Sequence record: PQ516281
DNA length: 64,000 nucleotides
DNA from: Escherichia phage vB_EQ1
Reading direction: 5' to 3' (one strand)
The notes under the pieces are model-generated. The model was not told the DNA's origin and searched no databases. It saw only the letters and a list, made by a program, of their open reading frames with translations. The stretch's first letter is position 1. Every line of letters begins with the position of its first letter. A program made the position numbers and the translations under genes. Below are positions 46,128 through 50,240 of this stretch, piece by piece.

Positions 46128-49100
46128 ATGGCTACATTAAAACAGATACAATTTAAAAGAAGCAAAGTGGCAGGAGTTAATCCTACTGCAGCACAATTAG
46201 CCGAAGGCGAATTAGCGATAAACTTAAAAGATCGAACTCTTTTTACTAAAGATGACCTTGGTAATATTATTAGCCTAGGCTTTGCTAAGGGCGGGGATAT
46301 TAACGGTAATGTAACTCAAAATGGTGATTATTTACAAAACGGCTCATATAATCTTAATGGAAACCAGTTTGTTTATGCAGGAAAGTATATCGAATTCTTG
46401 CCTAAAATAGCTGGTAATGGCGCTTGGGCTAACCAACATTCGAATAAAGCCCCTATCTTTACAGATTTAAGTTCAACTACTTCTGTTTCAGAATACCACC
46501 CTTTGATTAAGCAACGTTATAAAGACGGTACTTTTTCGGTAGGTACACTAGTAAGCGAAGGCTCATTTAGAGTTCATTATATTGATTCTACAGCTCCAGA
46601 CAATTCTAAACACTGGGTCTTTAACCGTAATGGTAATTTTATTGTAGATTCTGGTAGTATTGAGGTCCGCGCAGGTAATATTTCTGCATCAGGCAATATT
46701 AACTCTGCCAATGGTATAGTTTCTGCTCCACAAGTTAATACGAAAACCATTGTTTTGGACACAAAAGCATTCGGACAATATGATTCGCAATCATTAGTTC
46801 AATATGTTTATCCTGGAACAGGCGAAGAAAATGGTGTAAACTATCTTCGTAAAGTTCGCGCTAAATCAGGCGGAACTATTTACCATGAAATCGCTTCAGC
46901 TCAAACTGGTAAGAATGATGAAATTTCTTGGTGGACCGGAAATACACTTACTACTAAATTAATGGGTCTTCGTAATGATGGCGCAATGGTATTACGTCGT
47001 TCACTTGCTATTGGCACAATTACCACTGATGAAAATACTAACAACTATGGTTCTCCTACTCCAATGGGAGAAAGATATATTGCTTTAGGTGATGCTGCCA
47101 CTGGTTTAAAATACATTAAGCAGGGTGTTTATGATTTAGTAGGTAATTGGAATTCTGTTGCTTCTATTACTCCTGATAGTTTCCGTAGTACTCGTAAAGC
47201 ATTATTTGGACGCTCAGAAGACCAAGGCGGAACCTGGACAATGCCTGGAACCAACGCCGCACTTTTATCGGTTCAAACCCAGGCTGATACAAACAATGCA
47301 GGTGATGGTCAAACCCACATTGGATATAATTCTGGCGGTAAATTTTCCCATTATTTCCGTGGTAAAGGCCAAACCAACATTAATACACAGGAAGGTATGG
47401 AAATTAACCCAGGTATTCTTAAACTGGTAACTGGTTCTAATAACGTACAGTTTTATGCTGACGGCACTATTTCTTCTATCCAACCTGTTAAATTAGACAA
47501 TGAATTATTTTTAAATAATTCTAATAATATTGCAGGCCTTAAATTTGGCGCCCCTAGCAAAGTTGATGAAACAAGAGCTATCCAATGGAACGGTGGTACT
47601 CGCGAAGGACAGAATAAAAACTATGTGATTATTAAGGCATGGGGTAACTCATTTAATGCCACTGGTGATAGATCTCGCGAAACGGTTTTCCAAGTATCAG
47701 ATAGTCAAGGATATTATTTTTATGCTCATCGTAAAGCTCCAACCGGTGACGAAACTATTGGACGTATTGAAGCTCAGTTTGCTGGAGCTCTTAATGCTAA
47801 AAGTATTAATGCCATCGAAAATTTTAAAGTTAATGGAACAAGCACTTTAGTCGGTAATGTTACCATGTCTAATGGGTTGTTTGTCCAAGGTGGTTCTTCT
47901 ATTACTGGGCAAGTTAAAATTGGTGGAACAGCTGATGCATTAAGAATTTGGAATGCTGAATACGGGGCTATTTTCCGTCGTTCTGAAGATAAGCTTTATA
48001 TTATTCCAACTCCACAGAATGCTGGTGAATCAGGTGGTATTTCTAATTTACGTCCGTTCTATATTACATTAAGTAATGGTAAAGTTTCCATGGATCATGA
48101 TGTAGATATCGGTGGCGGTAGATTTAAAGTAGAAGCATCTGGTATTACAGCAGGTCAGCGTATAACAATAAATACAGCATCAGATGCTATTAGAATAAAT
48201 GCTCCAACACAAGAGTCTTCTAACTTCATCCAAGGACGTAAAGCAGATGTCACAAAATGGTATTTGGGTATTGGCGATGGCGGAAACGTCGTTCGTATGC
48301 ATAGTTACACCTACTCCCATGGTATTGCATTAAACTCTGATACGGTTGATATAGCTAAACCTCTTAGAATAGGTTCAACCCAGATTGGAACCGATGGTAA
48401 CATCACAGGTGGTTCTGGTAATTTTGCTAACTTGAACACTACTTTAGACCGTAAAGTTAATGTTGGCACTTGGTCGGGCGGAGCAGCTGCAGGTTGGTAT
48501 AAATTTGCTACTGTAACTATGCCTCAAAGTACGGCAACCATCCAATTTAAAATTACAGGCGGTAATGGATACAATGTCAATTCACCAGAACAAGCCACAA
48601 TTACTGAAATAGTTCTTAGAACAGGCAATAATAATCCTAAAGGTATTAACGCTACCTTATGGGGCCGGACTGGTAATGGATTTACTAATATAGCAACAGT
48701 TAATACTTCTGGCGATGATTATGATGTTTACCTATACGTTGGAACTTACGCGGACAAACTTATAGTCGAATATGATTATACAGCAAATACCCGTTATATT
48801 TCAGTAGTTGGTCTTAATGGTGTTAACCAAACACCTGTAGCGGAATTACCTACTGGTCATCTGCGTGGTCAAGTGTATATGATGTACTCCGATGCTCAGA
48901 TACCTTATCCGGTCGGTGCTCCGATTCCATGGCCAAGCGATTCAATTCCTGCTGGATTTGCTTTAATGGAAGGTCAGACCTTTGATACCGCAGCTTATCC
49001 TAAGCTTGCTATCGCATATCCTACAGGTACTATTCCTGATATGCGTGGGCAAACTATTAAGGGTAAACCATCTGGGCGTGCTGTATTAAGTACAGAAGCA

Positions 49101-49661
49101 GACGGTGTTAAGTCACATAGCCATAGTGCAAGTGCATCAAACACAGATTTGGGTACTAAGACCACTTCTAGTTTTGATTACGGTAGCAAAACGACTTCAA
49201 GCTTTGATTATGGTACTAAGACCAGTAATACCACTGGCAACCATAACCATACAGTGAGTGGTAATACTAGTTCCGCTGGTGCGCACCAACACGCGCGTTC
49301 AGGTCCTCAGGTACAAGGCGGCATACCCACTAGCATATTCTATGATGGATACAATAGTGCGGGTCCAAACGGCAACGCTAAATTCACTGCAACCGTGAGC
49401 GGTGCTACTGCATCGTCGAATATGGCCAAAACTTCTTCAGATGGTGCCCACACTCATAGTTGGTCAGGAACTACTAGCGCTACTGGTAACCATGCTCATA
49501 CTGTTGGTATTGGTGCTCATTCTCATACTGTTGGTATTGGTGCTCATTCTCATACTGTTGCAATTGGTTCCCATGGACATACAATAACTGTAAATAGTAC
49601 AGGTAATACAGAAAACACAGTTAAAAACGTTGCTTTTAACTATATCGTTCGTTTAGCATAA
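46128..49661 (+). CDS. 37: gp37 long tail fibre distal subunit (receptor-binding), with C-terminal His-box repeats
   Basis: 1177 aa; HxH boxes ([33 protein letters not shown] x2, GSHGHT) and T4-like end …[11 protein letters not shown]. Confidence 0.9.
49499..49552 (+). repeat. Perfect 27-nt tandem repeat in gene 37 His-box region
   Basis: ACTGTTGGTATTGGTGCTCATTCTCAT twice (encodes TVGIGAHSH x2). Confidence 0.8.
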
Positions 49662-49666
49662 GGAGA

Positions 49667-49680
49667 GGGGCTTCGGCCCC
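49667..49680 (+). terminator. UUCG hairpin between genes 37 and 38
   Basis: GGGGC-TTCG-GCCCC. Confidence 0.45.
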
Positions 49681-49688
49681 TTCTAAAT

Positions 49689-50240
49689 ATGAAAATATAT
49701 CATTATTATTTTGACACTAAAGAATTTTACAAAGAAGAAAATTACAAACCGATTAAAGGTATGGGTCTTCCGGCTCACTCGACATCAAAAAAACCTTTAG
49801 ACCCTAAAGAAGGCTATGCTGTTATATTTGACGAACGCGAGCAAGAATGGGTATATGTTGAAGACCATCGTGGAAAAACAGTATGGACTTATGATAAGCA
49901 AAAAATTGTTATTGACACTCCAGGTGCTCTTCAAAATGTTACTACAGAAGAACCTGGTGAATTTGACATTTGGACCGATGACGGGTGGAAGGAAGATGAA
50001 GCATATAAACGCGTAGTTCAACGTGATAAGAAAATTCATGAACTCTATAAATTATTCAGTGTTTTAAGTTCTCTTATTGACGCAGAGGTTGCTAATAGAG
50101 AAGAAAAACGAAAATTTAAAGAGCTCAAAAAATTCTTTGCCCTTTTAGAAAAACATGAACATCTTGGCGGTGAATTCCCTAAATTCCCGGACCTTGAAAA
50201 CAAATCTATTGTCAAAGCGATTATAAATATCTTTAAGTAA
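49689..50240 (+). CDS. 38: gp38, T4-type tail fibre assembly chaperone
   Basis: 183 aa; MKIYHYYFDTKEFYKEENYKP… matches T4 gp38. Confidence 0.85.
   Translation: MKIYHYYFDTKEFYKEENYKPIKGMGLPAHSTSKKPLDPKEGYAVIFDEREQEWVYVEDHRGKTVWTYDKQKIVIDTPGALQNVTTEEPGEFDIWTDDGWKEDEAYKRVVQRDKKIHELYKLFSVLSSLIDAEVANREEKRKFKELKKFFALLEKHEHLGGEFPKFPDLENKSIVKAIINIFK

Follow-up and report, generated by a model that had tools for sequence, protein, structure and literature searches.

The 64,000-nt stretch of Escherichia phage vB_EQ1 analyzed here (PQ516281; the window) contains gene 37, which encodes the distal subunit of the long tail fiber, and gene 38 immediately downstream of it. Gene order is 34-35-36-37-38-t, and the flanks are near-identical to Mosigvirus records. 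Host choice is set by tail-fiber tips; because the tips decide which bacteria a phage attacks, correct domain maps matter for host-range prediction and engineering. The gp37 product matches PHROG 1699, "long tail fiber protein distal subunit" (E 3.7e-261), and is 89% identical to phage moha gp37 (P0123) and 93% identical to the metagenomic homolog P0122. Over 179 of its 183 aa, gp38 is 68% identical to T4 gp38 (E 1e-93). It matches PHROG 105, "tail fiber assembly" (E 4.4e-50), and scores 23.4 bits against Pfam Caudo_TAP, barely over the cutoff of 22.1. Glycine-rich motifs, hypervariable segments, and a length of ~260 aa characterize the gp38 adhesins of T2/T6-type fibers. When the window gp38 was compared with the T2 gp38 adhesin by BLASTP, E was 1.5 and no meaningful alignment resulted, and the window has neither a gp38 adhesin nor the T2-type gp37 C-terminus of adhesin-capped T2/T6-type fibers. 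An earlier reading from the sequence alone (the sequence-only reading) was correct in its gene identities and in calling the next gene a T4-type chaperone, not a T2-type adhesin. Together with gp57A, gp38 would fold the fiber trimer, and would itself not be part of the fiber.

Features are listed in Table 1. A CUUCGG hairpin, a T-run, the late promoter motif TATAAATA, an AAGGAG ribosome-binding site, and an ATG at 45454 follow one another upstream of gene 36. By analogy with T4 gene organization, TATAAATA probably promotes a g36-g37-g38 transcript. The hairpin between genes 37 and 38 is conserved, with a near-identical sequence in the same place in T4. Open reading frames at 47158–47430, 49797–50039, and 50045–50398 are internal or antisense to well-supported genes and were dismissed as chance.

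Table 1. Features of the gene 37–38 region and its upstream promoter motif, in window coordinates
Feature	Coordinates	Strand	Basis
T4-type late promoter motif TATAAATA, upstream of gene 36	45422..45429	+	Pattern search
Gene 37, long tail fiber distal subunit, 1177 aa	46128..49661	+	ORF
gp37 proximal/shaft part, aa 1–756, mosaic	46128..48395	+	Collinear with T2 gp37
Conserved 14-aa junction motif, aa 757–770 (T4 786–799)	48396..48437	+	Alignments
Inserted all-beta sandwich domain (predicted), ~150 aa, aa ~776–926	48453..48905	+	Without counterpart in T4 gp37; most of the extra length
D10 collar/knob, N-terminal part, aa 925–995 (T4 811–881)	48900..49112	+	Pfam Collar, PDB 2xgf
D11 descending stem, aa 996–1055, 60 aa (T4 50), HxH boxes 1–3, two FDYG decapeptide units	49113..49292	+	
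D11 tip/head subdomain, aa 1056–1101, 46 aa (T4 28)	49293..49430	+	Hypervariable among homologs; presumed receptor contact
D11 ascending stem, aa 1102–1160, 59 aa (T4 50), HxH boxes 4–8, 2 x 27-nt repeat	49431..49607	+	
D10 C-terminal strand returning into collar, 17 aa (T4 1010–1026)	49608..49658	+	
C(UUCG)G tetraloop hairpin, g37-g38 intergenic space	49666..49681	+	RNA fold -15.6 kcal/mol, z -2.0
Gene 38, T4-type tail-fiber assembly chaperone, 183 aa	49689..50240	+	T4 gp38 homology

T4 gp37 (NC_000866) has 1026 aa, so the window protein is 151 aa longer, in line with the roughly 150 aa that had been noticed from the sequence. Alignment places this difference in three segments. Before the 14-aa junction motif, the window gp37 is 29 aa shorter than T4. 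Between that motif, which in T4 lies 11 aa ahead of the collar, and the collar itself, a domain insert contributes 143 aa. A further 37 aa lie in the D10-D11 tip, divided among the descending stem (+10), the head (+18), and the ascending stem (+9). Repeat units thus account for just 19 of the net 151 aa, and the larger head for 18. The proposal that the enlargement is mainly a His-box expansion is contradicted by these figures; on alignment, gp37 is longer than that of T4 mainly through the extra predicted beta-sandwich domain. The extra length lies largely outside the receptor-binding tip and is largely shared with relatives.

The body of gp37 resembles several fiber proteins. Residues 485–700 resemble the C-terminal region of gp34 (PDB matches 4uxe/5nxf), residues 695–790 are covered by a match to PDB 4a0t (T7 gp17), and Pfam gp37_trimer (PF20744) matches residues 687–761. 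The middle of the gene (47600–48950) has at best 86–91% nucleotide identity to any phage record. The protein is best explained as a modular mosaic, in which a T2-like body of ~920 aa, ending in the ~150-aa beta-sandwich domain absent from T4, is fused to a T4-type receptor-binding tip composed of the D10 collar and the D11 needle. The region is very probably an ordinary gp37, mosaic in this way, with the T4-type gp38 chaperone of a Mosigvirus (RB69/JS09-like T-even). A recombination breakpoint inside gp37 was hinted at by comparison with MRostami-2023e; the gap in that unverified record consists of runs of N, and therefore nothing is concluded on a breakpoint.

The tip is assigned by homology. 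Pfam Collar (PF07484) matches residues 930–977 (E 1.7e-10; 41.1 bits, cutoff 24), and a phmmer search of the PDB aligned gp37 residues 920–1177 to residues 22–242 of 2xgf_A (E 3.4e-80). Over the final 33 aa there is a single difference from T4, which bears out the T4-type terminus described earlier. The T4 chain doubles back, with a stem of residues 882–931 and 960–1009 and a tip of residues 932–959 (PMC6957217); these limits were used to map the stem and head of the window protein. Contacts G921-F970 and H929-G964 in T4 fix an antiparallel register of i + j ~1891 (PMC6957217), and therefore the T4 FDYG unit (897–906) lies opposite GIGAHTHTVA (985–994). In the window protein, the needle chain would likewise run down the stem, through a small head, and back up.

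There are exactly eight HxH boxes in gp37 (at least seven had been noted), all within residues 997–1151: HSH 997, HNH 1039, HQH 1053, HTH 1108, HAH 1122, HSH 1131, HSH 1140, and HGH 1149. T4 has seven, and T-even gp37 proteins with seven to nine have been reported (PMC6563267). Spacings are 42 and 14 residues on the descending arm, 55 across the variable head, and 14, 9, 9, and 9 on the ascending arm. The last box is 29 aa from the end of gp37, as in T4. The stem would be that of T4 plus one rung, a 10-aa FDYG unit on the descending arm and a 9-aa GxHxH unit on the ascending arm that would face each other in the structure, and this rung would account for eight boxes instead of seven. HxH boxes of three chains would coordinate iron ions along the needle axis. 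Sequence register and covariation suggest the additional rung and a total of eight iron sites. Homology and arm covariation point to a trimeric six-stranded needle with iron at the HxH boxes. An AlphaFold2 monomer model of the tip, built from a 33-sequence alignment, was poor (pLDDT 58.6, pTM 0.24) and was set aside for stem length and unit packing.

Both repeats described in the sequence-only reading are present. The 27-nt unit GGTATTGGTGCTCATTCTCATACTGTT occurs twice in perfect tandem at 49506–49559 and encodes GIGAHSHTV twice; Tandem Repeats Finder assigns a score of 135 to a period of 27 with 2.9 copies and 94% matches. The repeated decapeptide is the FDYG unit, with two copies at residues 1010–1029 (nt 49155–49214) that differ at 7 of 30 nt. 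These repeats, one pair of which is perfectly identical in nucleotides, had been read as a recent His-box and FDYG expansion in the receptor-binding tip that enlarged gp37 and changed its host range. A precedent would be the host-range mutants of T4 that reportedly carry tandem duplications within the C-terminal part of gp37; a literature search found no account of "His box" duplication. The repeats are instead located in the iron-binding stem (T4 882–931, 960–1009), outside the receptor-contacting head (932–959; PMC6957217), and their units supply only the 19 aa counted above.

Distribution and divergence of the units also argue against recent growth. The eight-box layout (42,14 | head | 14,9,9,9) was found in 116 of the 120 full-length gp37 proteins examined, a count that takes in the window and T4, and a comparison of six relatives at the nucleotide level shows three ascending units in every one. 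The second and third of these units show 5–7 nucleotide differences in four relatives, three in JN02, and two in the window. Homogenization of the pair is confined to the window and MRostami-2023e, with JN02 close to that state. Unit 2 of the window bears the core of the conserved unit 3, hence the perfect repeat: the array was homogenized, not grown. On this comparison, a short gene conversion between neighbors in a long-established array of three units produced the perfect repeat; it is no recent duplication. FDYG copies differ at 6–9 of 30 nt in every phage compared, so the FDYG duplication is old, and their synonymous-site divergence is the same in moha and the window. Judged from these sequences, the histidine-repeat form is the usual one among relatives. 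Among relatives, a shared stem goes with many different heads, and a shared head goes with a shared stem. Recent repeat expansion is largely refuted as an explanation and is now very improbable; stem repeats outside the receptor-contacting tip, common to relatives with differing heads, are not supported as a driver of host range.

Numbers of descending and ascending units change together in 369 of 370 homologs, a count that spans nine architecture classes. The length of the descending arm equals 22 + 10(n9-1) + 14nB, within 1 residue, where n9 and nB are the numbers of 9-residue and 14-residue HxH spacings in the ascending arm. This relation holds in 238 of 239 close homologs and in all 131 independent representatives at 50% identity. 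The homolog samples are biased towards the query. Many homologs also share ancestry, and the number of independent events behind the 369 conforming cases is therefore far smaller.

The one exception to the lockstep is the metagenomic homolog P0193, with two FDYG units and only two ascending 9-aa units. This exception could mean that the perfect 27-nt repeat slips readily and acts as a switch, or that it is an artifact of assembly, and that the real or functional number of ascending units varies; perfect tandem repeats are known to be prone to slippage and to assembly collapse. However, MRostami-2023e, the record nearest to the window, matches it at 100% identity through the repeat stretch, so an independent record has the same repeat. 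The 2 x 27-nt repeat is also well below read length, and the matched arms in all but one homolog argue that unmatched variants are non-functional or artifactual. An unstable or artifactual repeat is therefore extremely unlikely.

The T4-type stem may be a modular ladder whose length changes only by matched unit pairs and, as a separate element of the same proposal, the beta-sandwich domain might be a second, glycan-binding site; we put this forward tentatively, as a real possibility that falls short of probable. In such a ladder, the 10-aa FDYG descending unit would pair with the 9-aa GxHxH ascending unit, and each 14-aa HxH unit would have a 14-aa HxH partner on the opposite arm. Stems would carry 5 to 10 HxH boxes, and the window would be an eight-box state with ongoing gene conversion between rungs. 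Needle length is apparently adjustable only in matched descending and ascending steps, a useful constraint on the design of chimeric fibers. If true and not already formalized, the rule would provide a simple grammar for engineering needle length, and single-arm slippage mutants are predicted to be dead.

The inserted domain is shared more widely than T-even fibers. It is present in T2-type gp37 and in E. coli prophage tail fibers, as judged from tblastn against phage records and full-length gp37 matches, and is 70–98% identical within T-even gp37. A word-indexed homolog search with the domain alone returned a single partial match, and Pfam gave no match on gp37 residues 776–926. The beta sandwich is its predicted fold, from a model of moderate confidence (pLDDT 65). 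Stem length and the beta-sandwich domain would together set the geometry of the fiber, not its specificity.

Alternatively, the domain could be a second receptor module that binds a glycan (e.g., O-antigen or LPS core), giving a fiber with two binding sites in which this domain, and not the needle, explains host-range differences from T4-like fibers without it. It adjoins the receptor-binding tip and moves modularly among unrelated fibers (T2-type gp37, Felixounavirus, SSU5, ST64B, and prophage Stf). The only moderate confidence of the model weighs against such a role, and no binding-site residues or signature of a carbohydrate-binding family were found in the domain. It is fairly conserved among fibers with differing heads, which better fits a structural spacer than a specificity determinant, and AV117 has it yet is OmpC-dependent. 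A glycan-binding module is compatible with the mosaic fiber described above but is unlikely.

Specificity is expected to lie in the head. The window head is unrelated in sequence to that of T4, and its exact sequence recurs in eight cluster representatives, phage moha included. The OmpC/LPS-binding residues of T4 are located in the equivalent of this segment (PMC6957217). By analogy, the head would contact the primary receptor, which is most probably OmpC, alone or together with LPS core. T4-type gp37 and gp38 are on record for Mosigviruses; AV117 and AV118 were shown experimentally to use OmpC, and some T4-type Mosigvirus fibers may depend on LPS instead (PMC10844046). [quoted passage not shown] No phage with both the exact window head and an experimentally determined receptor was found. 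The specificity residues to examine are those of the head (aa 1056–1101), not the histidine repeats. The current understanding of T-even adsorption is unchanged by these results.

Among known systems, the side tail fibers (Stf) of lambdoid E. coli and Shigella prophages, considered here with the assembly chaperone Tfa, carry a collar-needle-head module 57–77% identical to that of the window. Many have the beta-sandwich domain directly ahead of the collar, and they obey the lockstep stem rule. They differ from the window gp37 in being short (about 215–440 aa as listed, many partial), in their other N-terminal bodies and different heads, and in having 5, 6, 7, or 8 HxH boxes.

T2 gp37 is collinear with the window protein over residues 1–922 (59% identity by BLASTP) and nearly identical at residues ~200–480. 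Both the GNFANLN junction and the beta-sandwich domain fall within this span, and the alignment ends at window residue 922 (T2 residue 953). The C-terminal ~390 aa of T2 gp37, which dock the separate gp38 adhesin, have no counterpart in the window; in their place are a collar and needle of the T4 type, and gp38 is of the chaperone type. The T4 tip (PDB 2XGF) is homologous to that of the window over the whole of D10-D11, with the collar and HxH boxes on both arms in both phages. The two gp38 proteins are equal in length, and both phages have the CUUCGG hairpin between genes 37 and 38. T4 differs in lacking the beta-sandwich domain ahead of the collar, in its smaller head (28 vs 46 aa) and seven instead of eight HxH boxes, and in its shaft, where window residues ~660–756 are a different module.

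Further close counterparts are Mosigvirus moha (MN850590), AV117 (OR352947), and the metagenomic P0122, which share the window-like inserted domain, the eight-box stem, and a T4-type gp38, with 85–93% amino-acid identity in gp37. The moha and P0122 heads are identical to that of the window; AV117 has a different head with a 37-residue spacing. Where the window has a T4-like segment (residues ~489–600), moha has another module. No protein identical to the window gp37 was found in the database. The window gp37 is a new mosaic allele of a well-known kind.

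Window gp37, the distal subunit of the long tail fiber, exceeds its T4 counterpart by 151 aa (1177 versus 1026 aa) and contains exactly eight HxH boxes, all within aa 997–1151, compared with seven in T4. A perfect 27-nt tandem repeat at 49506–49559 encodes GIGAHSHTV twice, two 10-aa FDYG repeat units are adjacent at aa 1010–1029, and the last 33 aa match T4 except at a single residue. The next gene encodes a T4-type gp38 chaperone that is 68% identical to T4 gp38 along the full protein and matches tail-fiber assembly families; it has no similarity to the T2 adhesin. These results confirm what the sequence-only reading had observed.

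Positions of tail-fiber genes and gp37 segments, with gp37 length compared with T4. The junction motif is a conserved 14-aa stretch (window gp37 aa 757–770, T4 786–799); D10 is the collar and D11 the needle.
Feature	Position	Window length	T4 length	Difference (aa)	Basis
Gene 34	40380–44255	1291 aa			
Gene 35	44264–45391				
Gene 36	45454–46119				
Gene 37	46128–49661	1177 aa			
Gene 38	49689–50240	183 aa			
Gene t, holin	50250–50909				
gp37 descending stem	aa 996–1055				mapped from T4
gp37 head	aa 1056–1101				mapped from T4
gp37 ascending stem	aa 1102–1160				mapped from T4
gp37 up to junction motif		756 aa	785 aa	−29	
gp37 junction motif to collar		154 aa	11 aa	+143	
gp37 D10–D11 tip		253 aa	216 aa	+37	

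The extra length was located by aligning gp37 with its T4, moha, and T2 counterparts and by its similarity to the T4 tip of known structure (2xgf, E 3.4e-80). The gain within the tip comprises 10 aa in the descending stem, 18 aa in the head, and 9 aa in the ascending stem; repeat units therefore account for 19 of the net 151 aa, which argues against enlargement mainly through repeat expansion. The T4 chain leaves the collar along stem residues 882–931, reaches tip subdomain 932–959, and comes back along 960–1009. Its HxH boxes hold seven iron ions, and the receptor-binding residues lie outside the stem, within the tip subdomain (PMC6957217, PMC9603124). Both duplicated units in the window belong to the stem, and the analysis does not support the proposal that host range is driven by repeat expansion in the receptor-binding tip. 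The eight-box layout is found in 116 of 120 full-length gp37 sequences and a seven-box layout in 4, in a sample (118 database homologues, the window, and T4) biased towards the query. Eight cluster representatives, including moha, have the identical head sequence, and dozens more have close variants. T-even gp37 proteins with seven to nine HxH repeats were reported earlier (PMC6563267), and needle length has been suggested to be proportional to HxH number (PMC12609058).

The only part worth carrying forward is a lockstep rule for stem units. HxH spacings were measured in two sets: 239 close homologues, and 131 representatives that a separate, independent search drew from a library clustered at 50% identity. 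The length of the descending stem follows 22 + 10(n9−1) + 14nB to within one residue in 238/239 and 131/131 sequences, respectively; n9 is the number of 9-residue HxH spacings in the ascending arm, and nB the number of 14-residue ones. Overall, 369 of 370 analysable homologues obey the rule, and nine architecture classes carrying 5 to 10 HxH boxes are represented, although many of these sequences share ancestry and independent events are far fewer than sequences. Ten-residue FDYG units pair with 9-aa GxHxH units, and 14-aa units with 14-aa units (window 49113–49607 and database homologues P0001–P0387). Published T4 contacts G921–F970 and H929–G964 (PMC6957217) give an antiparallel register of i + j about 1891, in which the T4 FDYG decapeptide (897–906) faces GIGAHTHTVA (985–994). 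This placement suggests that covarying units are physical neighbors. T4 has one FDYG/GxHxH rung fewer than the window; scaled from the literature length of ~20 nm for the T4 D10–D11 needle, the extra rung would add an estimated 2 nm or so of stem. The sole exception, P0193 (JGI metagenome, 1076 aa), has two FDYG units and only two ascending 9-aa units. Its absent unit adjoins a pair of identical units, relatives in the lineage have two identical adjacent units, and the sequence may reflect slippage deletion or assembly collapse of a tandem repeat.

DNA-level comparison covered six relatives (moha, AV117, p000v, JS09, KAW1E185, and JN02), and each of them has three ascending 9-aa units. Units 2 and 3 differ at 5–7 positions per 27 nt in four relatives, 3 in JN02, and 2 in the window. 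Window unit 2 has the core of unit 3, unit 3 is identical in p000v, JS09, and JN02, and phage MRostami-2023e is identical to the window in this stretch. From these comparisons, a short gene conversion inside an old array explains the perfect 27-nt repeat better than a fresh duplication does. The FDYG duplication is also old, because its copies differ at 6–9 of 30 nt in every phage compared, with the same differences in moha and the window.

An inserted domain at aa ~776–926 was detected by tblastn in 294 phage records. Its T2 gp37 counterpart spans aa ~808–953 of 1341 (54.7% identity), and other carriers are many T2-type T-even fibers, Felixounavirus, SSU5, SJ46, and ST64B fibers, and Acinetobacter T4-like phages. 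In E. coli prophage side tail fibers, the domain likewise directly precedes the collar. An AlphaFold2 model was all-beta with moderate confidence (15-sequence alignment; pLDDT 65, pTM 0.67), and its Foldseek matches among viral models were tail fibers and EPS depolymerases. Spread among fibers, the predicted fold, and these matches together point to a mobile beta-sandwich accessory domain of fibers and spikes. In gp37 variants P0184 and P0204 (1254 aa), a Peptidase_S74 intramolecular chaperone takes the place of collar and needle after the beta-sandwich domain, a third way to finish the same fiber body.

The gene 37/38 region lies in a typical T-even late-gene block, and the window was assigned to Mosigvirus by megablast. 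The flanking sequence shows 100% identity to Escherichia phage MRostami-2023e (OQ031495), an unverified record with N runs inside gene 37. In this closest public relative, the N runs lie where the window has the shaft mosaic and inserted domain, so the 1080 aa obtained by translating its gp37 is not a reliable length. The gene 37 and 38 pair is 92–96% identical to that of moha over its full extent. T4-type late promoter motifs (TATAAATA) occur upstream of genes 34 and 36, with a third just upstream of t near the gene 38 3′ end; genes 36, 37, and 38 therefore probably share a transcript, as in T4. An imperfect 11-nt tandem repeat at 45421–45441 (GTATAAATATG, 1.9 copies, the second degenerate, TATACATA) overlaps the gene 36 promoter. 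C(UUCG)G tetraloop hairpins directly follow the stops of gene 35 (45402–45419) and gene 37 (49666–49681); downstream of the former are a T-run and the gene 36 promoter, and the latter has a near-identical T4 counterpart.

gp38 and gp57A would fold the gp37 trimer, the head would touch the primary receptor, and the stem and beta-sandwich domain would set reach and geometry. No experimentally determined receptor was found for a phage carrying the exact window head. The receptor is most likely OmpC, possibly with LPS core. Among T-even phages, T4-type tips form the OmpC-targeting class (PMC8594841), and such tips, with variable heads, were present in 17/17 OmpC-specific Straboviridae of a large screen (bioRxiv 10.64898/2026.04.02.716166). 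OmpC was experimentally required by Mosigviruses AV117 and AV118, which encode T4-type gp37 and gp38 (PMC10844046). Some fibers of this type may depend on LPS instead.

In window gp37, a T4-like tip is joined to a T2-like body. Through aa 922 the protein aligns collinearly with T2 gp37 (59% identity, near-identical over aa ~200–480); beyond this point the window has a collar and needle of T4 type, and T2 has its own adhesin-docking C-terminus. Moha gp37 has a different module where the window has a T4-like segment (aa ~489–600), one of the smaller mosaic patches. Residues ~485–700 (window 47580–48230) resemble the C-terminal region of the proximal half-fiber protein gp34 (PDB 4uxe, 5nxf, E about 1e-12) and aa 695–790 resemble the T7 gp17 fiber (4a0t); both stretches exemplify shared fiber modules. 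The closest database protein is 93% identical, none is identical, and the middle of gene 37 reaches at best 86–91% nucleotide identity among phage records. Because neither its overall architecture nor any of its modules is unprecedented, window gp37 counts as a new mosaic allele of a well-described sort; mosaicism of this kind at the tail-fiber locus has long been recognized (PMC3157838).
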